Assembly: GCA_965208325.1 (NCBI GenBank) | Contig: OZ242326.1 | Location: forward strand, 864,001-928,000 | Source of the DNA: Candidatus Poribacteria bacterium | GTDB lineage: Bacteria > Poribacteria > WGA-4E > PCPOR2b | Reading direction: 5' to 3' | Length of the DNA stretch: 64,000 bases | In this document: positions 25,009 to 49,072 of the stretch, piece after piece | Position numbering within the stretch: the stretch's first letter is position 1 | Layout: each line of letters opens with the position of its first letter | Notes under the pieces: generated by a model | The model's database searches: none | Seen by the model: only the letters and a program-made list of their open reading frames with translations | Told to the model about the DNA's origin: nothing | Translations under genes and position numbers: made by a program

Positions 25009-25081
25009 ACATCTCCTCTCCCGACTACTACATAATCAACATTAAATCTTTCATCACGCTAAGCGAATTCAGGTATTGGCA

Positions 25082-27961: not shown

Positions 27962-28001
27962 CAAGAGATTCAAATCGACGCAAGACGCAAGGAGAAGATT
28001 C

Positions 28002-29918
28002 ATGGAAACACAATCCCATCTCAAAATTTTAGAACCTATTAATTCTGTTGAATCATACGAATTTGAGCCTATTCAGGGTTACCCCATGCTCAACTGGAAA
28101 GGTAAACGCCCTTTCCGATCCACACAATACTATCCAGCCCAACTTAAAGAGACGTATGGTGAGGAAGTAGAGGGTTGGCAAAACAAAATATACTGGGGCG
28201 ATAACTTGCAGGTAATGAGCCATTTACTTAAAACCTTTCGGGGCAGGATAAACTTGATTTACATTGATCCCCCGTTTGATTCAAAGGCAGACTACAAGAA
28301 GCAAATAGAACTTAAGGGAAAGAAAGTTGAGAACGATAAAAGTGCATTTGAAGAGAAACAATACACTGACATTTGGACGAATGATGAGTATTTACAATTC
28401 ATGTATGAGCGATTAATCTTGATGAAAGAATTGTTGGCAGATGATGGGACGATATATGTTCATTCTGACTGGCGAATGAATAGTTACCTTCAATTGGTTT
28501 TAAATGAGGTGTTTGGGAAGAGTAATTTTCTTAACTTGATAACATGGCGACGGCAAATAGTCCGCGGGATGAAAAAATACGCACGATTCATGCCATTCAG
28601 TTCGGATTACATTTATCTCTATGCAAAAGACAAAAGCAAAGCGATTTGGAACAAAATCGAAAAAGTTAATGCTATCTCATTGAAAAAGGCCGAACAAAAA
28701 TATAAGAAAGATGATAAAGGATTCTTCCGAACTTCCGACCGCGGGACATACTCGGACGAGAGCATCATTCAACTCTATAAGGAAGGACGAATTCATGTCA
28801 CGCACGGTGGAAAATTCCAGATAAAGGAGGGCAAGGTGTCGGTATCAGCCGGCAAAATTGGCATCAAATATTACCGCGAAACAGTTGGTGATAAAGTCCT
28901 TGAAAAAACGGTTTTTGATAATCTATGGGATGATATATCTGGATTGGGTATTACTCCCCACGAATATCTTGATTACCCAACCCAAAAACCCGAAGCACTG
29001 CTCGAACGTATAATCAAAGCCTCGTCCAATCCCACCGACATCGTCTTGGACTGCTTCATGGGCAGCGGCACGACGCAAGCGGTCGCTATGAAACTTGGCC
29101 GTCGCTTCATTGGGGCAGACATCAACCTCGGTGCCGTGGAAACTGCGACAAAGCGTCTCCTGATTGTTGCAGCATCGCTAAAGGAAAAAACGGCACAAAG
29201 GCGAATTGAAGAAACCCTAATCCACTTTTCGGGATTTGAAGTGTATAACGTCAACCACTATGATGTATTCCGAAATCCCGTTGAGGCGAAAGACCTGTTG
29301 ATAGAGGCATTAGAGATACAACCTCTGCCAAACGGCGGTATTTTCGATGGCGAAAAGGACGGGCGCATGGTGAAAATCATGCCAATCAATCGAATTTCAA
29401 CCCGAGCAGACCTCAACGAACTAATCGCGGGATTTAACTACCAAACATTTGAAAGGCGTCAGGAAGAAAATCCAGATGCTCCGGTCGAAAAGCTATTACT
29501 GGTCTGCATGGGCCACGAACCTGGCCTCGCCGCAGCACTGCAAAACGAAGTACCTCACAAACTTGACATAGAAATAATGGATGTTTTGCGCGATAAATCC
29601 CGACTAGAGTTCAAGCGTGAATCCGAAGCGAAGATTGTTCGTAACAACGGATACCTAATCATAGAGCAATTCTACCCGATGAACCTTCTTCAAAAGTTGA
29701 GCCTGATAGAGGAAAACGTCGCTGATTGGCGCGAACTGGTGGAATCTGTAAAGGTTGACTTCAACTACGACGGCGGGGTGATGAACCCATTAGTGGTCGA
29801 TCTGGCGAAAGAACATCAACTAGTTGAGGGCACTTACCCCATTCCAGAAGACGCGGGCACAATCCGAGTTAAAATCACCGATTTGCTGTCAGAATCTTTG
29901 GAAAAGACAGTGGAATAG
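28002..29918 (+). CDS. mod: Beta-class amino-methyltransferase, type III R-M Mod-like
   Basis: YIDPPF precedes YPTQKP and DCFMGSGTT; start ATG 28002 after AAGGAG (alternative GTG 27948 overlaps the helicase). Confidence 0.88.
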   Translation: METQSHLKILEPINSVESYEFEPIQGYPMLNWKGKRPFRSTQYYPAQLKETYGEEVEGWQNKIYWGDNLQVMSHLLKTFRGRINLIYIDPPFDSKADYKKQIELKGKKVENDKSAFEEKQYTDIWTNDEYLQFMYERLILMKELLADDGTIYVHSDWRMNSYLQLVLNEVFGKSNFLNLITWRRQIVRGMKKYARFMPFSSDYIYLYAKDKSKAIWNKIEKVNAISLKKAEQKYKKDDKGFFRTSDRGTYSDESIIQLYKEGRIHVTHGGKFQIKEGKVSVSAGKIGIKYYRETVGDKVLEKTVFDNLWDDISGLGITPHEYLDYPTQKPEALLERIIKASSNPTDIVLDCFMGSGTTQAVAMKLGRRFIGADINLGAVETATKRLLIVAASLKEKTAQRRIEETLIHFSGFEVYNVNHYDVFRNPVEAKDLLIEALEIQPLPNGGIFDGEKDGRMVKIMPINRISTRADLNELIAGFNYQTFERRQEENPDAPVEKLLLVCMGHEPGLAAALQNEVPHKLDIEIMDVLRDKSRLEFKRESEAKIVRNNGYLIIEQFYPMNLLQKLSLIEENVADWRELVESVKVDFNYDGGVMNPLVVDLAKEHQLVEGTYPIPEDAGTIRVKITDLLSESLEKTVE

Positions 29919-29936
29919 CGACTTATAGGGGAAAAA

Positions 29937-32540
29937 ATGGCACGAATTGCGCGAACACAGATTAATCTCGATTTCGCCTTCTTCACCTACCTACGCATCT
30001 TTTATACTGAGAACCGCGGGCGAATTCGCAATCACTTTCGAGATCTATCTAAAAAATTCCTAGATTTCAACACCCCTGAATCAGGGGCGTTTTTGCGCGA
30101 ACCGCAGTTTGAGGCGTTAGAGATGTACATTTTCCTTAAGGAATATCTAGGTAACCGACACGTTCACGAGATTTTCACTGACTGGTACACAAAACAAAAC
30201 GGGTTTGAAGGGCGGTCAACTCTTGGTATCGAACAGCTTGAACTGCTTGGAGAACTCAATACGACGCAATACGAGGCTGTATTCCGCTATATTAGAAAAT
30301 CTGGAAATCGAAATTATGCGAATTATATTTTTGCGCTTCCAATGGGTACGGGCAAGACGATTCTCATGGCAACCTGTATCTTCTACGAGTTTCTGCTCGC
30401 CAATAAATTTCCGAAAGATCCAAAATATTGTCGTAATGCCCTTGTCTTCGCACCCGATCGAACGGTGTTACAGTCTCTCAAAGAGATTCAGACCTTCGAC
30501 ATGACAAAAGTTATACCGCATGAATACTTCAATTTCCTTTCACGCCACATCCAATTCCACTTCCTTGAAGAAGCCGGAACTACACTCTCTACAATGGACC
30601 GCTCGCAATTCAACATTATCATCTCCAATGCGCAGAAGATAATACTCAAAAAGCAACACACTGAGAAAAGTGCCAGTGAACGCTTGTTTAAGAGCGGAGC
30701 ACCGACTTACAAACCGGGAAGCGTCTACGACCAATTTTCAGGTCTCTACAATTTTGACACGCCCGAAGATGAGAACGAATTAACAACCAATCAGCGATTT
30801 CAGAAACTGACAAGGCTTGAACAACTCGCAATCTTTGTCGACGAGGCACATCATGCGTTCGGCAGTAAACTGGCAAGGGACATGGGGCTTCAGAAGTCAA
30901 AGACCAGTCTGCGGCTTACCATTGATGAACTTGCGGCAAGTTTGGAGCGTGCGGGAACGCGCGTCTGCGCCTGCTACAATTTCACGGGTACACCATACGT
31001 CGGGCAACAGGTCTTACCCGAAGTAGTTTACGGGTACGGGTTAAAAGAAGCAATTGACAAAGGATTCTTGAAAAAAGTTAGGCTTCATACCTACACCAAT
31101 CCTAAAGACTCGGAGTTTGTGCGACTGACGATTAAGGATTTCTGGGACAATCATCGTGGATTACGACATGAAGGGATGTTGCCGAAACTCGCACTATTTT
31201 CATCCACAATCGACGAGTTAAAGAACGATCTTCGCCCCGCTGTTGAATCGGCGTTAAGCGAGTTTGGTGTGCCGCTCTCTAGCATCCTTGTTAATGTGGG
31301 AGATTCAAAGCTGACATCCAACGATGAACTCCGCGAGTTTATTAACCTTGACACCCAATCATCCGAAAAACAGTTTATCTTGTTAGTCAATAAAGGAAAA
31401 GAAGGATGGAACTGCCGATCGCTGTTTGGCGTGGCACTTTACCGGAGACCGAAATCCAAAATTTTTGTTCTACAAGCCAGTATGCGATGCTTACGGCAGA
31501 TTGGCGAAGACCAGCAAACTGGACACATTTATCTTTCCGCAGAGAATGCTCAGATTCTTGATGACGAGTTGCAGCAAAACTTCCGCGTGTCCGTCAATGA
31601 AATTCATAACTTCGGTGTTGAAAAATTAAATTATAAGGTACGAGTTAACAAACCGCCCGTGAACGTGACGCTCAAACGCATCAGAAAGTTGCACCAGCTG
31701 GTAGAAAAGCAATCCCAGAACGGGCTGTGTTTGGAGCTCGATCAGATAGACACAGAAAAGTATCGCTTAATACACGAAGAAAGTGAAGGGCTGGCGGCTC
31801 CTCACCCGATTCTAACGGAGGACCTATCCGAATACAAGTTAAAGCGAGATTTCAGTCAGTTGACGCTGTGTGCGGAAATTTCTCGCTACCTAAATCGATC
31901 TCCGCTGAAAATTGAGGAAATGCTGACGAATACAGAAGAAGGGATGCAAAGGATTCTGTCGAATGTCAATGAGTTTAATGAACTACTTTACGACTGGATA
32001 ATTCCACGAATTTTTAAGGCATTATATGATTTGCAGGAATTTGAAAATCACGAATCAGAAGAAATTGAATTGGTTAAGGAGCCCGAGGAGGGGTACTACA
32101 CTGTTCGGGCGACGCCTAACCTTGTTTTTACAGATAACAACACTGAAGTAATACAGCACCGGCGAAAGAGTTTTCACTTGGACACCTACGCTTTTGACTC
32201 CAACCCTGAAAAGGCTTTATTTTGGTCACTGCTGCGGGCTGGAAAAGTTAAAAAAGTGTATTTCACAGGAATGCTGACGCATGGGCAATCAGATTTTTAC
32301 ATCCAATACATTGACCCAGAATCGCATGCAGTCAGGCGATATTATCCCGATTTCCTCATGCGGAAGGATGACGACTCATGGGTCATCGTCGAAGTAAAGG
32401 GTGACAATATGGTTGACGACCAGATAGTTCAGGCAAAAGCTGCGGCTACCTATCAGCGAGCAAATGCAAGTCGCATGACATACAAAATCATTAAGGGCAG
32501 CGATGCTCAGGCGGGAAGATATAGTTCATTGTTGGAATAG
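29937..32540 (+). CDS. res: Type III R-M Res-like SF2 helicase with a C-terminal PD-(D/E)xK nuclease
   Basis: LREPQ Q-tip, PMGTGKT, VDEAHH, FTGTP, KEGWN, QASMRCLR, YYPDF..IVEVKG. Confidence 0.85.
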   Translation: MARIARTQINLDFAFFTYLRIFYTENRGRIRNHFRDLSKKFLDFNTPESGAFLREPQFEALEMYIFLKEYLGNRHVHEIFTDWYTKQNGFEGRSTLGIEQLELLGELNTTQYEAVFRYIRKSGNRNYANYIFALPMGTGKTILMATCIFYEFLLANKFPKDPKYCRNALVFAPDRTVLQSLKEIQTFDMTKVIPHEYFNFLSRHIQFHFLEEAGTTLSTMDRSQFNIIISNAQKIILKKQHTEKSASERLFKSGAPTYKPGSVYDQFSGLYNFDTPEDENELTTNQRFQKLTRLEQLAIFVDEAHHAFGSKLARDMGLQKSKTSLRLTIDELAASLERAGTRVCACYNFTGTPYVGQQVLPEVVYGYGLKEAIDKGFLKKVRLHTYTNPKDSEFVRLTIKDFWDNHRGLRHEGMLPKLALFSSTIDELKNDLRPAVESALSEFGVPLSSILVNVGDSKLTSNDELREFINLDTQSSEKQFILLVNKGKEGWNCRSLFGVALYRRPKSKIFVLQASMRCLRQIGEDQQTGHIYLSAENAQILDDELQQNFRVSVNEIHNFGVEKLNYKVRVNKPPVNVTLKRIRKLHQLVEKQSQNGLCLELDQIDTEKYRLIHEESEGLAAPHPILTEDLSEYKLKRDFSQLTLCAEISRYLNRSPLKIEEMLTNTEEGMQRILSNVNEFNELLYDWIIPRIFKALYDLQEFENHESEEIELVKEPEEGYYTVRATPNLVFTDNNTEVIQHRRKSFHLDTYAFDSNPEKALFWSLLRAGKVKKVYFTGMLTHGQSDFYIQYIDPESHAVRRYYPDFLMRKDDDSWVIVEVKGDNMVDDQIVQAKAAATYQRANASRMTYKIIKGSDAQAGRYSSLLE

Positions 32541-32585
32541 GGCATAATCGCAAACATTAAGAGTTCGGGGTCGTTCTTTTTGGCA

Positions 32586-33422
32586 ATGAGAAAGATCAAA
32601 ACAGGACTACGCTGGCTCTGTGGGAAGGTCGGCAAACTTAGTTTTGAACACATACCCCCGGAAAAAGCATTCAACGACCAGAAAGTTTTCCATGACTGCG
32701 TTATCAACATCCTTGAAAACCAAAAGCTTAAAACATCTCAACGAGGTGTTGGGGACCATACGCTGTGTATTACCTGCAACAATAATACAGGTACAATGTA
32801 TGGGTCTGCTTTTGTAGAATTTTGCAAACGTGCTGCTGACGTGCTGTCTCAGGCGTACGGTTATCCTACGCTGCATTACGAGTATAGTACCTACCCCTTG
32901 CGGGTCATTAAACAAATCGTAACGATGTTCTTTTCGACCAATAGCCCAGAATGGCGGAAATCATGTCCTGATTTGGAGAAATTCGTATTGGATAAGCAGG
33001 ATAGATACCTGCCTGAAAGATACGGCATCTTCCTCTATTACAATATTGAAGGTACGCTGCTGAAGCACACAGGCATACAACGTGTGCTTAAATTCGACCC
33101 CGACTGGATTGCTTCACCCAACCTGTCAGAATTCAGTGAAATCGTGCACCCTCCTTTCGGGTATTTGATGACAACAGACTCGGACAAACCAGATGATAGG
33201 CTGTTTGACATTTCTTGGTTCAGCAATTTCACCTTTGATGACTATCGGCGAGTGTATCTAAAAATTCCCGTGTTACCCATTTACACAATGTATGCGGGGC
33301 AATATCCGAGTCGAAAAGAAATAGACGAAATTCGACGCAAAAATCCGGCACGAGGTCTCCAAGATTACCTTGAAGACATCGTGAGTCAGTCTGTCAACAG
33401 GAAAGGCGAACAATCCAAATAG
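32586..33422 (+). CDS. HNH-like endonuclease domain protein
   Basis: LCG..LSFEHIPP..LCITCNN N-terminal pattern; first Zn-knuckle Cys position reads Arg (RWLC). Confidence 0.6.
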   Translation: MRKIKTGLRWLCGKVGKLSFEHIPPEKAFNDQKVFHDCVINILENQKLKTSQRGVGDHTLCITCNNNTGTMYGSAFVEFCKRAADVLSQAYGYPTLHYEYSTYPLRVIKQIVTMFFSTNSPEWRKSCPDLEKFVLDKQDRYLPERYGIFLYYNIEGTLLKHTGIQRVLKFDPDWIASPNLSEFSEIVHPPFGYLMTTDSDKPDDRLFDISWFSNFTFDDYRRVYLKIPVLPIYTMYAGQYPSRKEIDEIRRKNPARGLQDYLEDIVSQSVNRKGEQSK

Positions 33423-38167: not shown

Positions 38168-38319
38168 GGTAACTGGGTTCTCCATAAAACCAAGTGAGTT
38201 GCTAGATTTTTCTAGAACTTCATGATGTAATTTTGTTGTCCGCAGTTGTAATGATTGCGGAATGTCAGATAGCGGCACGTATCAGGCCATCCCATGTAAT
38301 GCGGATTTGGGAAAAAGGG

Positions 38320-38649
38320 TTATTCACCGTATACCGTTATAGTATAGGTGGCCACAATTCCTAGAACACTCTGTGAGTGTTGCTCAACATGGTGGATCTT
38401 GGTGATACCACCATTCCTAGCCGCCGTTTGGATACTTGCATCCCCTATTGCGACCCATCCAAGAATGGATTGTGCGAATGCCGTTCCTGATTTGAGCGGT
38501 TTGACATTGTTATCTATACTTGAAGGAATTGGTGCCTTTACATCGGAGTATAGAAAACCCGTAACGGGTTGTTTAGCCTGTGCAGCACATCCTGTCAGAT
38601 ACATAACCAGCAATAACGGGATTGTAACAGTAACAACAAATTTTGACAT
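38320..38649 (-). CDS. TRL-like family lipoprotein
   Basis: Lipobox LTGC; SILGWVAIGDASIQTAARNGGITKIHHVE..TVYGE; AAGGAG RBS. Confidence 0.8.
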   Translation of the reverse strand: MSKFVVTVTIPLLLVMYLTGCAAQAKQPVTGFLYSDVKAPIPSSIDNNVKPLKSGTAFAQSILGWVAIGDASIQTAARNGGITKIHHVEQHSQSVLGIVATYTITVYGE

Positions 38650-39274
38650 GGTAAACTCCTTTTAATTGAGCAAAATAAAATCATCACCTATAATCATAGC
38701 CGGCATCGCTGTCCTTTATCACTTAATGCCGAACTTGTAGCGGCTTTGACCCCGCCCCCAATCTCAGAAGACGGCTTTCGCGATGCCTAGCAATCGGAAT
38801 CACTAAACCCATTTGGAATTTAGCAGCAAATAACAGACAGAAATCGATGAACGCGTATCGTTTGGCAAGGAAATGATTTGCGCCGTACATCGGCATTTCA
38901 ATCTTAGATTGACGCTCTTGTTATTCTTCATTAAGTAATGATTTATGATACCACAAGAAACCTTTCTCGGCAACGCCAAAAATCTGCGAACGCCGGTTGA
39001 CGGATACTCCTGTCCTAGTATAAAATCTTAAATTTTCACAAATTGTATTTTACCGCCACCACGCATTATATCCGATACTGTCAGTAACGCTTTTTTTAAT
39101 GAGAAAACTCATAGTTGAGAATCTACCGCCGGATGCCACATAGAAACTGAAAATCATGTAAACTTCTTTAAACTTTGTAAACTTGATCGAGAGAAAATTT
39201 CATCAAAATTTACGTCGCTACAACTTGACATACTTCGAGGTTTTGTCGACATCTCTTTATAAGGTTGTGGCATT

Positions 39275-39954
39275 ATGTTAAGAATGATGCCGATAACCTT
39301 ACCTGATAACCAATGGGAAAAAATATATGAGTTTCTTCTGGGTTGTTCCAACATCTTTGTCCGCAACGAAGCCGAAACCCGACGATTCGTCGAAGCTGTC
39401 CTGTGGGTGGCTCGCAGCGGTGCGCAATGGAGATTATTGCCTACTGCTTATGGCAAGTGGAACTCCATTTACAAGCGGTTTAGTAACTGGTGCGACATAG
39501 GAATCTTCGAACATATGCACCGCCACTTTGCCTCCGACCCAGATATGGCGTCGCTTATTATTGACTCGACCATTTGCCGGGCTCACCCATGCGCACCTGG
39601 CGCCTCAAAAAAAACGGGGGTGCCGAAAACCAAGCGTTAGGACGTTCTCGCGGCGGCTTCAGCACCAAGATTCACATCACAGTTGACGCACTAGGTAATC
39701 CGCTTAGACTCCAGCTAACCCCCGGTCAGAGACACGACATAGCTGAAGCCGAATCGTTGATAGTTGGATATAACAGCCAGCATGTAATTGGAGACAAAGG
39801 ATATGACTCAGTTGAATTTATCACCGTTATTGAAGCCAATGGTGCCATTCCGGTGATACCACCACGACGTAATCGTGGTGCTCAAAGAACATTCGACCCC
39901 CATTTATACAAAGAGAGACATCTAGTCGAATGTTTCATCAAAAAAAAATACTAA
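39275..39954 (+). mobile_element. IS5-family transposase in two frames (-1 frameshift), 3'-truncated
   Basis: orfA RSGAQWR.LP..YGKWNSIYKRF..W, IIDST; A8 slippery run 39607-39614; orfB GRSRGGFSTKIH, GDKGYD, YKERHLVE, then a stop right after an A9 run (39940-39948); no right end found. Confidence 0.88.
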
Positions 39955-40300
39955 TCCACGCCACATCACCAACAGCGATTCACCATCCGTGGCAACGCCG
40001 CATGATTATGTGCCCACGTAATCATAGCCCATCGTTTAATCATACAAATCACAGTTCAGACAGTCTTCTCAATAACGCAACACTACACCCGCCGCGGCAA
40101 CAATATGTAGGTTTCATTTTGTTTTTCGAGATTCCCACCGAGCGCCAAAGAATGCCCTGAATCAGAATCCAAAACAACACTGTCCCAAAATTTCCCCTTC
40201 ATACCCACCTGCAACGGCACAAACCCTTGCCCCGTCCGCATCCAAGCGATGGATTTTTCAACCCTTTCCGCCAAAAACCCCGATAACCTCGCACTCCGCC

Positions 40301-40329
40301 TTGACAATCGCTAAATCTCAAAGTATACT
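40301..40329 (+). promoter_or_regulatory. Near-consensus sigma70 promoter giving a nearly leaderless mRNA for the terminase pair
   Basis: TTGACA (40301-40306)-17 nt-TATACT (40324-40329); ATG at 40339 with no Shine-Dalgarno. Confidence 0.7.
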
Positions 40330-40338
40330 ACAATTATT

Positions 40339-40872
40339 ATGCCAACTACAAATGTCCAATTCGGCGAATCGGACATTGACTTCACCATTGAGCGTTTTGC
40401 TTATTATGGTGAGGGAAAAGCTAATGCGAAGCGCGTAATTCGTGATGTATGTGATTATTTTGGGATTGAAGACAATGCTAGCAATCATAAATTATTATCC
40501 AATAAAATTCGTACCTTTAATCCCAACCGAAAAGACTGCGCAGAGCATTATCGGAGTCGCTATCTCATGAAACGAAATCAGGTTCTTACACACAGACACG
40601 AACCCAACGGCATTTTTTCACAACAGCTACATGCACTTTTACTCGTTGCATTCAAAGTTCTGTCTGAAGAGATGACGCCGCCCCTCGCACTCAAGCTCAT
40701 TGAAGCCGAAATCCGATTCGCAATTGAAAACAAACACATAAATGTTCAGGAAAGAATTGAACGACAATGTTTAGCCGCCGACACGGGAGATAGTTCATTT
40801 CTAAATGGAAAGACGGAGCCGGATTTACGGAAACCACAGTCGGTTTCTGAAAATCCATCGCGCATACCATAG
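40339..40872 (+). CDS. Putative terminase small subunit
   Basis: 177 aa, mostly helical, directly upstream of TerL; FTIERFAYY..V..YFGI..FNPNR pattern recalls DUF2280-type TerS (from memory, unverified). Confidence 0.5.
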   Translation: MPTTNVQFGESDIDFTIERFAYYGEGKANAKRVIRDVCDYFGIEDNASNHKLLSNKIRTFNPNRKDCAEHYRSRYLMKRNQVLTHRHEPNGIFSQQLHALLLVAFKVLSEEMTPPLALKLIEAEIRFAIENKHINVQERIERQCLAADTGDSSFLNGKTEPDLRKPQSVSENPSRIP

Positions 40873-42619
40873 TGTAAGCGTGCCGTCCGCCATTAAAAGA
40901 ACTGGAGAGGAACAGGACATCTATCTCCGCGGCTTCCATGATGTCCTCTTCTTTGCCAAGCATCACTTTCCCAATGTGTTTACGGTGGAGTGCGGTCCCC
41001 ATGCTTCTCCTATTCTGAATTGCATTCCTTCAGGTGAGCGCGGACAGCGCGTCAATATTATTGCGCCTAGAGGTTGCGGCAAAAGCACCTACATCGCCGT
41101 AATCTATGTGCTGCACTGCGTTTACTACAAAGACGAATACGAACGGCGCGGCTTAATGCCCGATAGCTTCATCGTTATCCTGTGCGGTACCAAAGACCTC
41201 GCTGTGGCGCGGCTGCACGACATCCGAGACAAAATCGAGGACGATCCCAACTTCCGCCATCTCAAAGGAAACGGTAAGTGGAGCGCGGACCAGCTCGATA
41301 CGGCAAACGGAGCATGCCTAATTCCCGTCGGGCGGCACGGAAGAATCCGCGGTGAACTCAAGGATCTCGCAAGACCGACGCTAATTATCCTCGACGATGT
41401 TGAAGACTGCGAGGAAGTCCAAAACCCCCGTATCCGAGATAAAAACTGGAAATGGTTCAACGAAGATGTCATGGCTGCTGGTAGAATTGACGGCAAGACT
41501 AACTTCATCCACGTCGACACCGTAAAGCACGAGGAAGCCATCTCCAAGCGTCTGCAACTTCTGCCCGACTGGTACAACCAATTCTACCGTTCTATTGAAC
41601 ATCCCCGAGACCTACGCCACCCCACCGCCGAACCGTTTTGGGAAGAGTGGCAGAAAATCTATACGGACTTGACGCTCGAAAAAGACGAGCGTGACCGCCT
41701 TGCGCATGCATTTCTTGAGGAACACAAGAATGAAATGCTGGACGGCATCCAAGAACTCTGGCCCCAAATGCTCTCGTACACCTACATCCGGCGGCTCATC
41801 TGCAACGATGGCTATATCCCCGTCATGCGTGAGCGGCAAAACTCGACACGCGACCCTTCTAAAGAAATTTTCAACATGGAAAAAGCCGTTCGCTTCAAAA
41901 TCACGCCCGACGGACTCTTGCGTAGCGACGGGCGGCTAGTCCTATGGAGCGACATCGCTGGCGGTACAGTTTTCCTCGACTGGGCTGGCGGAAAGGACGC
42001 TTACGATTCCTGCTACGCCGCCGCTGTGTTTGTCGTGTGGGAACCGCTGCCTCAAGCGACTATGAGGCGTAAGGGAGAACCGGTTGCCGCCCTCTCTAAC
42101 ACCCACGCCTACGTCCTGAACGTCTGGATGGACAAAGTCCCCGTCACGACCCAACTCGAGGAGACTTTTAAACTCATAAAGCGCAGTGTCAGCGCTGTAC
42201 CGAACATTCGATTCGATTCCATCCTGCTCGCAGTCGAGGAAATTCCGAAAGACACCGGTAACGCGTTACACACCATGATATCGCGGGCTTTTAAGGGTGC
42301 GCGGGAAAAATACGGCATGACCTCGTTAGTCCGCCTTAAATTCCACAAACGAAGTGTCCGGAAGTTGGACCGCATCGCCGCGTTGGAACCGCCAATCGCC
42401 AACGGTTGGCTCGTCTTCAATGAGACGCTGCCAGAAGTGTTTATGCGCCAGATGCGGCAATTCCCGACCGGGGATTTCTGCGACGGTCCCGACGCCCTGC
42501 AAGGCGGGACTGAGTTGCCCATCACGCGCTTCCCCGCCCATAAACTGCCGCACGGAATGCCGATGCCGTTCGACGACGATCCGGACGCGCCAATGCACGT
42601 TATAAGGAGTTATCTATGA
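40805..42619 (+). CDS. terL: Phage terminase large subunit
   Basis: FAKHHFP, Walker A APRGCGKST, IRG..RPTLIILDDVE Walker B, nuclease VFLDWA, AVEE, KLDRI..LEP..NG, QFPTG..DGPDA; start may be GTG 40880. Confidence 0.85.
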   Translation: MERRSRIYGNHSRFLKIHRAYHSVSVPSAIKRTGEEQDIYLRGFHDVLFFAKHHFPNVFTVECGPHASPILNCIPSGERGQRVNIIAPRGCGKSTYIAVIYVLHCVYYKDEYERRGLMPDSFIVILCGTKDLAVARLHDIRDKIEDDPNFRHLKGNGKWSADQLDTANGACLIPVGRHGRIRGELKDLARPTLIILDDVEDCEEVQNPRIRDKNWKWFNEDVMAAGRIDGKTNFIHVDTVKHEEAISKRLQLLPDWYNQFYRSIEHPRDLRHPTAEPFWEEWQKIYTDLTLEKDERDRLAHAFLEEHKNEMLDGIQELWPQMLSYTYIRRLICNDGYIPVMRERQNSTRDPSKEIFNMEKAVRFKITPDGLLRSDGRLVLWSDIAGGTVFLDWAGGKDAYDSCYAAAVFVVWEPLPQATMRRKGEPVAALSNTHAYVLNVWMDKVPVTTQLEETFKLIKRSVSAVPNIRFDSILLAVEEIPKDTGNALHTMISRAFKGAREKYGMTSLVRLKFHKRSVRKLDRIAALEPPIANGWLVFNETLPEVFMRQMRQFPTGDFCDGPDALQGGTELPITRFPAHKLPHGMPMPFDDDPDAPMHVIRSYL

Positions 42620-42874
42620 TGGCTGAATTAACCAACATGTTAGGGCCTTCAAAAATGAGCATTCTCAACTTATTTTTTCTGGCGCACAACAATGCTCAAC
42701 GCCCCAAACCCGCTCCCTGTCTAGCTTTCCACGCGTTTTGCTTATTTCACTATGTCCCAAATACTCAAAAAATAAGCAAATCCAATATCCCAAATTTACC
42801 TCGCCTCAACTTAACCAAAGTCACGCTTATTTCCCTGAACATGTGCCAAATTTCATTTGGAGAGAGGCCGAGAT

Positions 42875-43360
42875 ATGACTAAAATTGTTAGCACGCTTCT
42901 CGCGTTTGGGGCTATAGCCGCTGTCATGCTTGTTTTCATTGTTACTCTTTTGCACAGCGACTCCTTCAATATACGTACGTCATCTGAGCCCGAGAGTGTT
43001 GAACTTGATGCGGCAAATCAGTCGCCAAATAATCTGGGATTGTCTTCCGAAGTGGACTTTTTGTTTGGGAGACCTAGATGGTTGCCGGGTGGGGTGATTC
43101 AAATTATCCCAACTGTCGGCGTGGATTTTGGGTTCATCCGACCAATCGCATCCGGGTATGCTGTCGGAAGGTCATTCATGGTCGGTACGAGCACCACGCT
43201 ATCCGATGAAGAGTTAGGTTTCAGCACAAAACATCGCGTCTCCTTTGAAACGGGAATCCGCGTTTACCTATCCCCTTCGCAGTATGTGTCGATCACTTGC
43301 GGCAAACAGTACGACGAAGATAGCGTTACGACAAACTTTAAAACTGCGTTGCGGCTTTAA
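42875..43360 (+). CDS. Membrane-anchored hypothetical protein with a beta-strand-rich C-terminus
   Basis: GGAGAGAGG RBS, N-terminal TM helix, SFETGIRVYLSP strand pattern. Confidence 0.5.
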   Translation: MTKIVSTLLAFGAIAAVMLVFIVTLLHSDSFNIRTSSEPESVELDAANQSPNNLGLSSEVDFLFGRPRWLPGGVIQIIPTVGVDFGFIRPIASGYAVGRSFMVGTSTTLSDEELGFSTKHRVSFETGIRVYLSPSQYVSITCGKQYDEDSVTTNFKTALRL

Positions 43361-43405
43361 TGTTGGCGCGCGCCGGTTATATGACAACGGTGCAATGATG
43401 ATGGG

Positions 43406-44620
43406 TTGTTGGAAAGCAATCAAATAATTGTGCGATGCTCCCGCGCAAATATAACCAAGTTCTATGTCAGCTCAGCGCTCGGCGGTTTTACGCTATTTCA
43501 CGGCGTGTTGGGTTTTTACATGCGGCAGATTGGGTTTTCGTACACCCAAATCTTCTTTTTAGCCGCCCTATACGAAATCTTGGTTTTTCTCTTGGAAATT
43601 CCGACTGGCGTATTTGCCGACCGTTTCGGGCTTAAAAAGTGCGCAGTCCTAGGGCACTTCATATCCGCCGCAAGTTGTTTTCCGATTGCACTGTTCCCCA
43701 CATCTTACAGCGTGTTCCTTCTCTGGAGCGTGTTGTCAGCGATATGCACGACACTGAATTCCGGATCGGTAGAGGCGCTGCAATTCGAGTCGTTGCGAGA
43801 TATATCGCGCGAAGCAGAATACACAAAGTTGCGCGGCAGATTAGCCGCAATCGGAGGCTTGTCAATGCCGGTTGGGGCTCTTATCGGCGGCGTTCTTTGC
43901 GAGAACATCGGGTTTGGTAACGTCGTCGCGCTCGGCGGGCTGACCGGACTATTTATTACCGCAGTTTATGTCAGTATGAGCGAACCGAGCGAGGTTCAAC
44001 TAGCGCGCGAAAGTTTGACAGATCAAAGCATATTTAAGTGGATAGCCGAAAACTTTCGATTTATTAAAAAGGATAAGGAATTAACCGGAGTCATTATCGC
44101 CGGAGCGGTGGTCTATGCAGCGTATCTTCTGATTAATAACTATTCGCAGCCGTGTTTGGAAGAGGCAGGAATACAGTCGTATCGAATTGTTGGCTTGGTT
44201 AGCGGCTCCTTTATGCTCGCGTTCGCCGCAGTCTCATGGTGGGCGGGATATTTGACGCAACGCATCGGAGCGAAAGGCACATTCGTGTGGTTGTCCGGCG
44301 TGCCGATTTTGAGTTTAATAGGCTTGGGAAGACTTAACGGCATCACATTATTGGCACCGCTCTATCTCTCCAGGTTGGGCGAGGGTGTCGCCGAGCCTGT
44401 CATCTCGAACCGGTTGCTTCAGAAAAGCCCAGCGGGAAGAACCGCAACGCTCCTTTCCACGCATAGCCTTCTTACATCGCTGGTATTTTCTATATGGAGC
44501 ATGGCGAGCGGGTTTGGTCTGGACAATGTAGGTCGATTCTTCACATTTTCTGCGGGTGCCGCCTTCGCGGTTATAATATTGCTGTGGAGCGGGCGGTGGG
44601 TAGTGAGAACTGACGATTAG
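43406..44620 (+). CDS. MFS transporter
   Basis: LEIPTGVFADRFGLK (motif A), SGSVEAL, about 12 hydrophobic segments. Confidence 0.85.
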   Translation: MLESNQIIVRCSRANITKFYVSSALGGFTLFHGVLGFYMRQIGFSYTQIFFLAALYEILVFLLEIPTGVFADRFGLKKCAVLGHFISAASCFPIALFPTSYSVFLLWSVLSAICTTLNSGSVEALQFESLRDISREAEYTKLRGRLAAIGGLSMPVGALIGGVLCENIGFGNVVALGGLTGLFITAVYVSMSEPSEVQLARESLTDQSIFKWIAENFRFIKKDKELTGVIIAGAVVYAAYLLINNYSQPCLEEAGIQSYRIVGLVSGSFMLAFAAVSWWAGYLTQRIGAKGTFVWLSGVPILSLIGLGRLNGITLLAPLYLSRLGEGVAEPVISNRLLQKSPAGRTATLLSTHSLLTSLVFSIWSMASGFGLDNVGRFFTFSAGAAFAVIILLWSGRWVVRTDD

Positions 44621-44669: not shown

Positions 44670-46502
44670 TTGCTGCGTTTTGCGAAAACACACAACGGCG
44701 TTGCCGTAAGATTTTTATCACAGCATGGACCATCATTCAATTTCAGTCCGAACAATGGTAGGAAACCGCTGCTTCCAATTTTTCTCACAATTCAATTGAC
44801 CGGTTTGATTGCTGCCGTTTTCGCGGCGGAGATATACGGGGGGCAAAAGGAGGAATCTATGATGCGAAGTGAACAACTAGTGGGTACCCCCAACACCCTG
44901 GATTTGGTAGAGCGGGCGCGGTATGCGATTAACGCGATGACGCAAAGCACCAATCCGGAAGCGGAGTACGCGGTCTACTTCACCGGGGTGCTTCACCGCA
45001 ATCCGCCGACGCTATTGAGGGAAATCCCGCTGTACGGAAAATTCATGGAAGGGTTGGCTTTAATGCGCATCATGACGAGCGGCGAATTCGATACACGCGC
45101 ATCTACGCAACCCGATGATTTTAACCGGCATGTGGACCGCGTCTGGCGGGAAGCCTTTCTGCGCAAGCTAAAGAAACAGGAACTTACATTAGTTGGCGCC
45201 GAAGGCGGACGGCAGCTCGCTTGGTTGGCGATCCAATATCAACAGACCCAAGACTCAATGTGGAAAGAACTCGGCGAAACGGTGATTCAGCGGGCGCTAA
45301 AAACGACGGTCCATCAAAACGGCTACTGCTATTTCCCGACTGACGCGGAAGGCACAATGCCGACGAGTTGGGAGGCGACCTACCAAGGGTGGACGCTCCA
45401 GGGCGTAACCCAATTTTATATGGCGACCGGCTCTGAAGCGGCGCTGGAACTGGCGGGCAAACTCGCCCGCTACTTGAAAGATCACTCCGGCATGTTTGAT
45501 GCCGACGGACGCTTTCTCGCACGCCACGACGTTGATGTTCCGCTCGACCCGCCGGCTACACTTGGACCTGCGCTGCATTTCCACCACAATGGCAACACGA
45601 TGGAAGCGCTCTCGGAGTATGCGTGGGCAAGCGGCGAATCGGAATTTGGAGAATTCGCCAAGAAATGCTACGAATACGCCCGTTCACTCCCCGACTCATC
45701 GCCGCTTATCGGCTTTTTCCAAGAGTACATCGACGATTGGCCCGATAACCGCGGTGTCATAGACTGCGAAACCTGCTGTGTCGTTGACATGATGTTGACT
45801 GCGCTCTGGATGACGAAGGCGGGCGTGGAGGATTATTGGGACGATATCGACCGATATTTGCGAAACCAGTTCGCCGAGATGCAGATGACCTCCGGAGATT
45901 GGTTAACCCGGATGACAGAAGCACTGCCGTATCGGCCGCCGGGCGAGGGCGAAATTGCCATGGGGTCGCCGGACCGCTGGGTCGGCACCTTCGCCGGTTG
46001 GGCGACTGCCAATGACTTCTTCGCCATCGGCGCAGGTCCCGGCATCATGCACTGCTGCACCGGCAACGGGTCACGGGCGCTTTACTACCTTTGGGAGAAT
46101 ATGCTTGAGTTCAGCGGCGGAGAGTTACGGCTCAATCTACTGCTCAACCGGAATTCTCCGTGGGTCGAGGTCAGCAGCCGCATCCCGTATGAAGGCAAGG
46201 TTGAGTTGAAGGTCAAGGCGGGGTGTGAAAATATTTCGGTTCGCGCGCCCGAATGGGTGGAAGGCTCAAACGGCGCAATGTCGTGCCGCGTTAACGGCGC
46301 CTCCCGAAACTTCAGTTGGAAGGGCCGCTGTGTACACATCGGCAAAGCCGCACCCGGTGATAAAGTTGAAATTACATTTCCCATATCGAATCGGACGGTG
46401 GAAGAAACGGTAGGCGGTGTGCCGTACACGCTTGTAATCCGGGGCAATAACGTGATTTCCATCTCTCCGCCGGGGAAGCATTACCCTTTTTATAACCGAT
46501 AA
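44670..46502 (+). CDS. GH127/GH146-like (beta-L-arabinofuranosidase-like) protein, paralogue 1
   Basis: CETCC and HCCTGNG Zn/Cys motifs, IPYEGKV, VRAPEW; strong internal start ATG 44859 after AAGGAGGA. Confidence 0.7.
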   Translation: MLRFAKTHNGVAVRFLSQHGPSFNFSPNNGRKPLLPIFLTIQLTGLIAAVFAAEIYGGQKEESMMRSEQLVGTPNTLDLVERARYAINAMTQSTNPEAEYAVYFTGVLHRNPPTLLREIPLYGKFMEGLALMRIMTSGEFDTRASTQPDDFNRHVDRVWREAFLRKLKKQELTLVGAEGGRQLAWLAIQYQQTQDSMWKELGETVIQRALKTTVHQNGYCYFPTDAEGTMPTSWEATYQGWTLQGVTQFYMATGSEAALELAGKLARYLKDHSGMFDADGRFLARHDVDVPLDPPATLGPALHFHHNGNTMEALSEYAWASGESEFGEFAKKCYEYARSLPDSSPLIGFFQEYIDDWPDNRGVIDCETCCVVDMMLTALWMTKAGVEDYWDDIDRYLRNQFAEMQMTSGDWLTRMTEALPYRPPGEGEIAMGSPDRWVGTFAGWATANDFFAIGAGPGIMHCCTGNGSRALYYLWENMLEFSGGELRLNLLLNRNSPWVEVSSRIPYEGKVELKVKAGCENISVRAPEWVEGSNGAMSCRVNGASRNFSWKGRCVHIGKAAPGDKVEITFPISNRTVEETVGGVPYTLVIRGNNVISISPPGKHYPFYNR

Positions 46503-46673
46503 TGGATTTGCGCCTGTCTTAAGCTAACTAATCTGAACAAATGCGCCCTCAATTTGATTCGTGGTAGTTTGATATGCGCCGCACAATTCAACCTACCTAC
46601 TAATGTCAATGACGATGATATGACATATCCCAACGATTCACTAATCGGTCTTATAGAAAAAGACCCATCAACA

Positions 46674-48455
46674 ATGAGACGGCTATGCATTTTCAATCCC
46701 TCGAAACGTTGGAAACTGAGACTCCCATTATTTCGCGCGATTCTGCCGATCGGGTTAATTGCCGCCGTTTTCGTTTCGGGGGGCTACGGAAAGCTCAAGG
46801 AGGAACCAACGATGCAAAATGAACAATTAGCAGAGGCACCCAACACGCTGGATTTGGTAGAGCGGGCTGGGTATGCGATTAACGCGATGACGCGAAGCAC
46901 CAATCCGGAAGCGGAGTACGCGGTCTACTTCACCGGCGTGCTCCACCGCAACCCGCCGACCCTATCAGGGCAAATTCCACTGTACGGAAAATTCATGGAA
47001 GGGACGGCGTTGATGCGCATTATGACGAGCGGCGAATTCAACACACGCCCATCTTCCCAACCCAAGGATTTCAATCGACACGTGGACCGCGTCTGGCAAG
47101 ATGCGTTTGTGCGGTTACTGACTGAAAGTAAGCCGGTGCTTACGGGACCCGAAGGCGGACGGCAACTCGCATGGTTAGCCATTCAGTATCGGCGGACGAA
47201 TAACGAAATGTGGAAAGAACTCGGTGAATCGGCGATTCAGCGCGCGCTTGATGCGGCAGTCCATCAAGATGGCTACTGTTATTTCCCGCACGGCGCAGAA
47301 GGGACGATGCCGACGGGCTGGGGGGCGACCTACCAAGGGTGGACGCTTCAAGGGCTCAGCCAGTTTCATATTGCGACCGGTTCGGACGTTGCACTGGAAC
47401 TGGCGGGCAAACTTGCCCGCTATTTGAAGGATTACGCTGGCGTTTTTGATGCGGACGGCCGGTTTCTATCGCGCCACGGCGATTCCATTCCGCACAGCCC
47501 GCCAGCCACACTGGGACCTGCACTGCATTTCCACCACAACGGCAATGCGATGGAAGGGCTGATGGAGTACGCGTTGGCGAGCGGCGATGCGGAATATGCT
47601 GAATTCGCGAAAAAATGCTATGAATACGCCCGTTCGCTCCCCGACTCATCGCCGCTTATCGGCTTTTTTCAGGAGTACATTGACGATTGGCCCGATAACC
47701 GCGGCGTCATTGACTGCGAAACCTGCTGTGTTGTTGACATGATGCTGACGGCGCTCTGGATGACGAAGGCGGGTGTTGGCGATTATTGGGACGACATTGA
47801 CCGGTACATGCGGAACCAGTTCGCCGAGATGCAGATGACCACCGGAGATTGGCTGGAAAAAATGAATGAAGGGCTATCATATCAACCGCCGGGCGATGAT
47901 GAGATTGCGATGGGTTCACCTCAGCGTTGGATCGGCACCTTCGCCGGTTGGGCGACTGCCAATGACTTCTTCGCCATCGGTGCAGGTCCAGGTATTATGC
48001 ACTGCTGCACCGGCAACGGGTCACGGGCGCTTTACTATCTCTGGGAAAATACGCTAGAATACAACGACGGAGAGTTACGGCTCAATCTGCTTCTTAACCG
48101 GCAATCTCCATGGGTGCAAGTCAGCAGCCATATCCCGTATGAAGGCAAGGTTGAGTTGAAGGTCAAGGCAGGGTGTGAAAATATTGCCGTTCGCGCGCCC
48201 GAATGGGTGGAAGGGTCGAGCGGCGTACTGTCGTGCCGCGTCAACGGCGCCGTCCGCAAAATTAGTTGGACGGACCGCTATGTGCACATCGGTGAAGCGG
48301 CGCCTGGCGACACAGTTGAACTCGCATTTCCGATATCTGAACGGACGGTCGAGGAAACAGTTGGCGGTGTTCCTTATACGCTTGTAATCAGGGGAAATAA
48401 CGTGGTTTCCATCTCACCGCAGGGAAAGAATTATCCGTTTTACCACCGTAATTAA
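46674..48455 (+). CDS. GH127/GH146-like protein, paralogue 2
   Basis: Highly similar to paralogue 1 with the same motifs; ATG 46674 gives a signal-like leader, ATG 46812 follows AAGGAGGA. Confidence 0.7.
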   Translation: MRRLCIFNPSKRWKLRLPLFRAILPIGLIAAVFVSGGYGKLKEEPTMQNEQLAEAPNTLDLVERAGYAINAMTRSTNPEAEYAVYFTGVLHRNPPTLSGQIPLYGKFMEGTALMRIMTSGEFNTRPSSQPKDFNRHVDRVWQDAFVRLLTESKPVLTGPEGGRQLAWLAIQYRRTNNEMWKELGESAIQRALDAAVHQDGYCYFPHGAEGTMPTGWGATYQGWTLQGLSQFHIATGSDVALELAGKLARYLKDYAGVFDADGRFLSRHGDSIPHSPPATLGPALHFHHNGNAMEGLMEYALASGDAEYAEFAKKCYEYARSLPDSSPLIGFFQEYIDDWPDNRGVIDCETCCVVDMMLTALWMTKAGVGDYWDDIDRYMRNQFAEMQMTTGDWLEKMNEGLSYQPPGDDEIAMGSPQRWIGTFAGWATANDFFAIGAGPGIMHCCTGNGSRALYYLWENTLEYNDGELRLNLLLNRQSPWVQVSSHIPYEGKVELKVKAGCENIAVRAPEWVEGSSGVLSCRVNGAVRKISWTDRYVHIGEAAPGDTVELAFPISERTVEETVGGVPYTLVIRGNNVVSISPQGKNYPFYHRN

Positions 48456-48814: not shown

Positions 48815-48865
48815 CGCGTTTCTCCTCTTGAGTTAAACTTTCTTCAGTATAAAAAACGACACAGA

Positions 48866-49072
48866 CTAGGGCGTGTTGACATTTGGCATCCCGTAGGTTG
48901 AATTGAACGGTTAAACGGCAGTCCCTATCAAGTACAATGGAATCTTTTGTAACACAATCTGTTAGATTGTGATCCGAGCCCGCAAACTAACAGTTTGTGC
49001 TACTTATATCAGATTATCCAATGGTGACAACGTTTGCGGAATCAGTAGCCTCAAAATGTCAACAGAACCTAG
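48866..49072. mobile_element. MITE-like element with IS5-type ends flanked by CTAG
   Basis: CTAG-GGCGTGTTGACATTT ... AAATGTCAACAGAAC-CTAG (11-bp exact inverted core), no ORF; a second left end begins at 49069. Confidence 0.7.
48949..49003. repeat. REP doublet nested in the MITE
   Basis: gtaacacaatctgttagattgtg / cgcaaactaacagtttgtgctac imperfect inverted pair, each arm self-palindromic. Confidence 0.7.

Follow-up and report, generated by a model that had tools for sequence, protein, structure and literature searches.

A phage-derived, multicopy two-gene terminase module that spreads to new chromosomal sites in Candidatus Poribacteria genomes without detected capsid genes

Structure of the terminase cassette

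A terminase gene pair was analyzed in a 64,000-nt stretch of the chromosome of a Candidatus Poribacteria bacterium, a sponge symbiont (contig OZ242326.1); the stretch is here called the window, and coordinates are window positions unless stated otherwise. The genome is a single contig of 4.71 Mb, 95.6% complete. The pair consists of a small gene (40339..40872, plus strand) encoding a protein of 177 amino acids (aa) in the position of a terminase small subunit (TerS), and of a gene for a terminase large subunit (TerL) homologue (40805..42619, plus strand) encoding 604 aa, without an internal stop, as an N-terminal packaging ATPase and a C-terminal RNase H-like nuclease. The results given below identify this pair as a phage-derived module that is held by selection, present in several copies and duplicatively mobile, in genomes in which no capsid gene was found. 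The two open reading frames (ORFs) overlap by 68 nt. An alternative in-frame GTG start of terL lies at 40880, 8 nt past the stop of the small ORF, and is used in a 579-aa database record (P0001). With the longest-ORF starts, the small gene was directly upstream of terL and overlapped it by 23-287 nt in all 24 intact copies from this genome and three congeners.

The large protein is a terminase large subunit by profile and by fold. It matched phrog_38 (terminase large subunit) with an E-value of 2.1e-47; no Pfam terminase family was matched, the sole Pfam match being DEAD, below the cut-off. The AlphaFold (AF2) model, made from 26 homologues, had a predicted local distance difference test (pLDDT) score of 84, and full-length TerL structures of three phages (PhiV-1, T4 gp17 and D6E) took the top nine ranks in Foldseek. 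The best was the T7-like PhiV-1 TerL (1.2e-16), and further matches were the terminases of HK97 and Sf6 and herpesvirus nuclease domains. A PDB search with the single TerL sequence gave no match, and one with the TerL profile gave only weak T7-like TerL matches (E 0.011 and 0.082).

The Walker A motif (APRGCGKST) was located at residues 87-95 and the Walker B motif (LIILDD) at residues 193-198. Residues R89, K93, D197, D198, T239, E478, D560 and D563 are invariant in the 26 aligned homologues and D392 is kept in at least 90% of them; from T4 gp17 and related work we take R89/K93, D197/D198 and T239 to belong to Walker A, Walker B and the C-motif, respectively. In the model the acidic nuclease residues sit at strand ends and at one helix start of the C-terminal domain. 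Because these residues are invariant, or nearly so in the case of D392, both the translocating ATPase and the nuclease look intact. A first-pass annotation, made from the letters of the stretch, had described an uninterrupted TerL frame with Walker A/B and acidic nuclease motifs, and the profile match, the TerL folds and the invariant residues bear this description out.

Phage TerLs such as those of the T7-like (gp19, PhiV-1) and T4 (gp17) types have the same two-domain ATPase and RNase H-like nuclease with the same catalytic residues, and likewise a small gene immediately upstream and overlapping. The cassette TerL differs from them in being multicopy in the chromosome, with no portal or capsid gene adjoining it or found in the genome. 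TerLs of cultured phages are 24-26% identical to the large protein and IMG/VR viral contigs reach at most 33%. A scan of metagenome contigs gave no TerL relative above 34% identity, and relatives that are 43-47% identical sit on contigs of 42-43 kb.

The small protein had no Pfam, PHROG or PADLOC match, no match among PDB folds at E<=0.001 in Foldseek (E217 TerS appeared only at E=4) and no usable match in the ESM Atlas. Its AF2 model (pLDDT 76) is all-helical, with six helices, among them three short N-terminal ones and a long C-terminal one. The family comprises 26 close homologues, and 65 clusters in a profile search of 1.84 billion representatives; when 53 of these 65 proteins were scanned, one matched phrog_4102, one matched DUF2280 (3.3e-4) and the remaining ones had isolated weak matches. 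In another cassette of the same genome, copy C, the small gene encodes a recognised TerS (phrog_4102, 3.6e-20), to which the small protein showed no detectable homology by hhalign (probability 0.3%). Prediction of a complex between the small protein and TerL returned a score of 0.00, which gives no verdict and counts neither way. The small ORF is therefore called TerS-like here only by its size, position, helical architecture and analogy. The first reading had described it as TerS-sized, and the structure prediction it had proposed led to clear fold matches for TerL and to no significant one for the small protein.

The cassette is preceded by a sigma-70-type promoter, TTGACA-17-TATACT (40301..40329, plus strand), followed by 9 nt and the ATG at 40339, as first noticed in the letters of the stretch. 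It agrees with the consensus at 11 of 12 positions, and both strands of the window together hold only 2 sites of this quality, compared with a mean of 0.8 in 30 local shuffles. The whole geometry (-35, 17 nt, -10, 9 nt, ATG) is kept in five of five subfamily-I paralogues, despite about 20% divergence of their DNA. With only 9 nt between the -10 box and the ATG, a leaderless or almost leaderless mRNA is predicted. The other three subfamilies (II-IV) have Shine-Dalgarno leaders in place of this promoter geometry.

The unit extends beyond the two genes. Its 5' non-coding part (40015..40338, plus strand) is common to a 91%-identical copy in one congener (G002). The left edge of the shared stretch coincides with a 47-bp dispersed repeat at 40019-40065 (TAATCATAGCCC...CAGACAGTC), of which the genome has more than 50 copies, often clustered. 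On the other side, the 3' non-coding segment of subfamily I (42620..42816, plus strand) carries a cluster of AATRCTCA octamers, at 42656-42663 (minus strand), 42691-42698 and 42760-42767, and is a candidate cis site: three octamers occur within 112 bp, against 4.07 expected per 64 kb. DNA homology between the window copy (copy A) and copy B of the same genome reaches 42795, and homology with the G002 copy reaches 42816. A structured RNA was considered for this segment and rejected in favour of a DNA site, the sequence being conserved without a consensus fold (alifold only -5.3 kcal/mol; single-sequence z-score -2.1).

Other features of the non-coding parts and the gene starts were as follows. 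A 25-bp near-palindrome (ATGTCCAATTCG G CGAATCGGACAT) lies at 40352-40376, at the 5' end of the small ORF, and three to four of the five subfamily-I copies are likewise palindromic there, with left halves that differ; subfamily IV has TTACA..TGTAA repeats upstream in its place. An antisense ORF at 40083-40307 was rejected as a third gene, being broken by stops in the G002 copy, and the 650-bp upstream part of the subfamily-II units held no convincing conserved ORF.

Copy number, selection and spread of the module

The search for extra copies that had been suggested earlier was productive. The genome under study (G000) has five intact cassettes, A to E, with TerL identities of 100, 79, 40, 40 and 39%, together with two stop-ridden fragments and one mini-derivative. 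Each intact copy has an overlapping small ORF upstream, and all five TerLs match phrog_38. In the four congeneric genomes (G000 and its congeners G001, G002 and G003) there are 24 intact full-length copies, which form four subfamilies, and none of the 24 has an internal stop. Of 41 related genomes, 15 have the family; they belong to 4 of the 14 genera, and the number of matches in a genome ranges from 0 to 9. The clade at 39% identity or more is confined to records of Poribacteria; the family of two-gene modules is Poribacteria-specific. The pair had at first been called an orphan. That term remains apt in that no other phage genes accompany it, and fails in that the pair is one member of a mobile family with five intact copies in this genome.

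Both genes are held by purifying selection. The ratio of nonsynonymous to synonymous substitution rates (dN/dS) of TerL was 0.13-0.37 in all 81 within-subfamily pairs, with 0.13-0.20 inside subfamily I and 0.25-0.29 between young paralogues of the same genome. For the small gene it was 0.09-0.34 in subfamilies I and II. Recurrence without phage genes and purifying selection had been proposed as a test of domestication, with a strain-specific cassette and a neutral dN/dS as the signs of a decayed remnant; on both recurrence and selection the opposite of a remnant was found.

The module behaves as mobile, because its presence and position vary between sister genomes and because it has duplicated within genomes. 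At the site of the window copy, the flanks are adjacent in G002, where window position 39184 is joined to 42806 via 161 unrelated bp. The 91%-identical G002 copy, which matches window positions 40015-42816, lies elsewhere in that genome. G001 has three copies (G1_b, G1_d and G1_e) that share 90-92% identity along 3.0 kb and the same sharp ends, and the left flank of each corresponds to a different region of G000; in G003 two copies at two loci (G3_a and G3_b) are 89% identical. The two decayed fragments of G000 (at 987120-987260 and 2586685-2587011 of the chromosome) adjoin flanks that border intact copies in congeners. Other loci are stably shared, namely G0_D/G2_e and G0_E/G2_c/G1_c/G3_d. 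Taken together, the copies document the spread of the module to new chromosomal sites.

Deleted forms of the unit were also found. What remains in the mini-derivatives, which measure about 540 bp, is the promoter, some 64 codons of the small gene, the 3' segment and an outward TTGACT-17-TATAAT. G003 has them at two non-orthologous loci, G001 has one orthologous copy, and G000 has a degraded one. Solo copies of the 3' segment (42620-42816) number four in G000, plus one within the mini-derivative. When seven G000 regions that match the flanks of congener copies and lack a copy were inspected, only one flank mapped near in each of the seven, indicating that the cassettes sit at synteny breaks.

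A 12-mer, ACCCAACCTACA, was found at some ends of the module. Inverted copies of it bound the subfamily-II unit, and it lies at most 240 nt downstream of terL in 10 of the 24 copies; none occurs within window positions 38300-44300. Together with its reverse complement the 12-mer is a dispersed repeat with 274 exact copies in G000, 151-248 in the congeners and 0-56 in other genera. Its copies often come in pairs 222-224, 250-254 or 330-336 bp apart, or in 227-bp tandem arrays, and frequently abut terminase cassettes, for example at the unit ends at L126, L128 and L129. The 12-mer was considered as the cassette's own terminal repeat and rejected, since its abundance does not go with cassette copy number. 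Recombination or mobilisation via dispersed repeats such as this one is a candidate route of spread.

The two genes of a unit can have different histories. At the orthologous locus of copy E, the TerLs of G0_E and G2_c are related to those of G1_c and G3_d (L011 and L135 versus L127 and L142) with a dN of about 0.21, whereas the small genes can hardly be aligned (dN about 0.8); therefore, the small gene alone appears to have been replaced. This implies that the small gene, the putative specificity subunit, may be modularly shuffled at this locus.

Phage relatives and genomic setting of the copies

Phage genes were looked for around the cassettes and in the whole genome. Pfam scanning of the two cassette ORFs and 26 neighbouring ORFs, covering 13.8-57.7 kb of the window (ORFs in 1-13.8 kb and 57.7-64 kb lay outside the individual scan), revealed no phage gene, and the 40 neighbours of copies B-E scanned in the same way were cellular, defence and transposase genes only. 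PHROGs applied to 22 mostly unexplained neighbours, seven of them in the window, gave no structural-module gene, and no portal or capsid gene was present near any of the five copies. No integrase was found among the Pfam-scanned neighbours; no search by name was made for integrase or lysis families.

Genome-wide, there were no matches for three portal families (phrog_156, PF04860 and PF05133), the HK97 capsid (PF05065), the tape measure protein (PF10145) or the other TerL ATPase family (PF03354), and poribacterial portal-like queries found nothing in the genome by tblastn. All six hallmark-family searches gave matches in control genomes; being sequence-based, they could be escaped by divergent structural proteins. 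The earlier statement that no phage structural genes lie nearby agrees with the scans of the window neighbours and extends, for these six families, to the whole genome.

The relatives of the module outside these genomes link it to phages. A portal-like gene lies 1-3 kb downstream of terL in 7 of 26 poribacterial loci, and the two that were scanned matched phrog_156 (7.6e-15 and 1.8e-13). In a TerL tree, made by a quick method with a midpoint root, portal-linked TerLs are interspersed among the orphan clades, and one portal-linked clade is grouped with subfamilies II and III. This interleaving indicates that the orphans derive from, or exchange with, phages of the Poribacteria phylum, and would be expected if the orphans must stay compatible with the portals of contemporary phages.

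Three of the five copies lie 2-7 kb from restriction-modification (R-M), Zorya or SIR2 defence genes. Copy A has an R-M-like operon at 7 kb, and the block at 25-40 kb has a lower G+C content (0.44-0.48). Downstream of copy C, at 2 kb, is a Zorya type II set (ZorE, ZorB, ZorA; L009 12957-16345; G000:C1 ~3141950-3145350). Copy E is flanked by a NucC/DUF6602-like nuclease, a Type IIG/ISP R-M enzyme and a ThsA-like SIR2 protein (L011 2985-3878, 12970-17252). In other Poribacteria, neighbours of the family include NACHT NTPase, Type ISP, ResIII, methyltransferase, Uma2 and transposase genes.

Several of these surroundings deserve description in their own right. The operon near copy A (25076-33422) is low in GC and is an unusual R-M-like or defence system. 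Its products are a UvrD helicase fused to a PD-(D/E)XK nuclease, which PADLOC marks as GajB-like, a Type III-like N6/N4 methylase, a ResIII helicase whose tail is a TnsA-like endonuclease, and a protein of 280 aa without a known family. A Tn5-like insertion sequence (IS) sits between cassette E and the R-M gene and is absent at the orthologous G002 locus. In another poribacterial genome the gene for a NACHT-type NTPase of 1357 aa immediately precedes a terminase cassette and has the same orientation (L149 3015-7088). Some STAND NTPases sense terminases, and one PDB entry title among the Foldseek matches names Avs3 bound to terminase.

Close to the window copy and not part of it is an IS5-family insertion sequence (39238..39946, plus strand) with a frameshifted transposase (DUF4096 at 39275-39640, DDE_Tnp_1 at 39574-39954). 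The element is multicopy in the congeners at 84-93% identity, independently of the cassette, with at least 13 copies in G003. At least 20 places in G002 match a 136-bp segment at 48865-49000 with 95-99% identity, suggesting a young miniature inverted-repeat transposable element (MITE) or IS end. Between the two, a pair of paralogous genes lies in tandem at 44670-48455; their products, of 610 and 633 aa, have a weak GH127-like domain.

Possible functions of the module

Our tentative explanation, the one we favour among those weighed here, is that the module hijacks or jams the packaging of related phages, combining interference with self-export. The module would be silent until a related phage infects the cell. 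The small subunit would then bind the module's own cis sites; the candidates, both retained in the mini-derivatives, are the AATRCTCA array on the 3' side of terL and the small gene's 5' end. TerL would dock on the portal of the invader's procapsid, cut, and pump chromosomal DNA from the cassette onward into phage heads. One outcome would be a lower phage yield, that is, packaging interference with a defence-like benefit; the other would be the export of the cassette and flanking DNA by transduction, a selfish benefit. In its full form the proposal makes the unit a minimal phage parasite, a terminase-only module of 2.5-3 kb with portal-matched versions, which seizes procapsids and packages from its own site, giving defence and lateral-transduction-like export in sponge symbionts; we consider this full form doubtful.

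Several observations weigh against phage hijacking. The module is known from its genes, so that expression, ATPase and nuclease activity, DNA binding and interaction with phages are all predictions, and neither profiles nor folds connect the small ORF of the window copy with TerS. No helper phage was identified, and the portal-linked relatives, at only about 40% identity, are known as gene neighbourhoods, not as intact phages. Packaging-driven transfer would by itself leave insertion at new loci unexplained. The ends of young copies and mini-derivatives show neither terminal inverted repeats of their own nor target duplications, and the 12-mer does not follow cassette number across 41 genomes (one, G040, has six TerL matches and two motifs, another, G028, no matches and 34 motifs). 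Strong defence neighbours are missing around copies B and D, and neither cassette protein matched any family of PADLOC-DB v2. A weak PHROG 'head closure' match (1.2e-6) fell on the TnsA-like nuclease tail of the ResIII protein (29937-32540) in the operon near the window copy; we read it as a common nuclease fold and not as a phage gene. Finally, the small-gene dN/dS was 0.71 in the single subfamily-III pair (dS 0.10), and rose to 0.73 in subfamily-IV pairs with saturated dS, where it is unreliable because the genes have diverged too far (dN about 0.8-0.9).

The position of three of the five copies in defence-rich variable regions, with NACHT, Type ISP, ResIII, methyltransferase and Uma2 genes as neighbours in other Poribacteria, could point instead to a stand-alone anti-phage effector, in which the ATPase-nuclease TerL, with the small protein as its control, would degrade phage or host DNA on infection in the manner of abortive infection and without packaging into capsids. 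The patchy distribution, the diversified paralogues, the purifying selection and the cassette's own promoter would all suit such an effector. Location is weak evidence, however, since mobile elements also accumulate in such islands, and the lack of a PADLOC match speaks against it. Moreover, the full translocase motif set is invariant, not the nuclease alone, and the interleaving with portal-linked phage TerLs is easier to explain by portal compatibility; we regard this explanation as unlikely. An autonomous transposable element, with the RNase H-fold nuclease and ATPase of TerL as recombinase, the small protein as end-binding factor and the minis as non-autonomous forms, would account for a 2.5-3.0 kb unit that has spread duplicatively to unrelated loci, for presence/absence polymorphism with an empty site, for derivatives that have lost internal sequence but neither end, found at two non-orthologous loci of a single genome, and for solo 3' ends; there is also no other recombinase in the unit. 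On the other hand, terminal repeats and target-site duplications are lacking as stated above, the ends are sharp on the left and ragged on the right, and the seven inspected sites are not clean insertions. In addition, the orphans are not monophyletic with respect to portal-linked phage TerLs and literature searches found no transposon that uses a terminase as transposase, all of which makes an element moved by TerL decidedly unlikely.

Two further explanations fared worse. Inert relics, the last genes of several decayed prophages without a current function, would be in keeping with the related poribacterial TerLs that adjoin portal-like genes, the existence of decayed fragments and the IS beside the window copy. 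All 24 full-length copies in four genomes nevertheless have open frames, almost every pair gives a dN/dS far below 1 for both genes, each locus retains these two genes and no others, young paralogues at different loci have identical unit ends, and the promoter is conserved. The relic explanation, which we consider very improbable, is already contradicted by the selection and copy-boundary data. A packaging enzyme serving a dispersed gene transfer agent (GTA) or tailocin-like system encoded elsewhere in the chromosome had been among the options first put forward, and a host-type promoter and a chromosomal, multi-locus arrangement would be compatible with it. The portal, capsid, tape-measure and other TerL families that such a system would call for gave no match in the genome, nor did the poribacterial portal queries, and five divergent terminases for one GTA would be left unexplained; of all the explanations weighed here we give this one the least credence.

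The hijacking proposal invites comparison with known phage satellites, which carry TerS alone or a full capsid and terminase module (PMC10690885; 10.1101/2022.09.08.507074; PMC6739421). Like the module, phage-inducible chromosomal islands (PICIs, including the Staphylococcus aureus pathogenicity islands, SaPIs) and capsid-forming PICIs (cf-PICIs) are chromosomal elements with terminase genes, which redirect helper packaging and so bring about interference and self-transfer. The export by transduction proposed for the module is what PICIs achieve with a TerS alone. Compared with PICIs, cf-PICIs and P4-like elements, the module is only 2.5-3 kb long and has two genes, without integrase, repressor, replication or capsid genes; it differs from PICIs and cf-PICIs also in having several divergent copies per genome and in that its dependence on a helper is presumed.

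With insertion sequences and MITEs the module shares multiple copies, patchiness between sister genomes, young duplicates, deleted derivatives and solo ends, whereas it differs from insertion sequences in that no recognised transposase was found in it, nor the terminal structures already mentioned. GTAs of the RcGTA type likewise have terminase genes under host control in the chromosome, but their terminase lies in or with a head-tail cluster, and no such genes were found in G000. Literature searches, mostly of abstracts, found no report of orphan or multicopy terminases in Poribacteria, of terminase-only multicopy modules or of terminase-based transposons. There is a real chance that the module is a new kind of element.

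Terminases count as a hallmark of tailed phages; they are used to mark prophages and are regarded as the trigger that Avs-type immune proteins sense. Cassettes such as these will cause false prophage calls in metagenome-assembled genomes. If complete terminase pairs indeed multiply in chromosomes under selection without particles of their own, packaging motors have a second life outside viruses. Should it be TerL that moves the unit, a functional link would exist between viral packaging nucleases and transposases. If, on the other hand, it is phage packaging that the module redirects, no smaller satellite-like element would be known, and it would provide a new route of horizontal transfer and of phage resistance in uncultured sponge symbionts.

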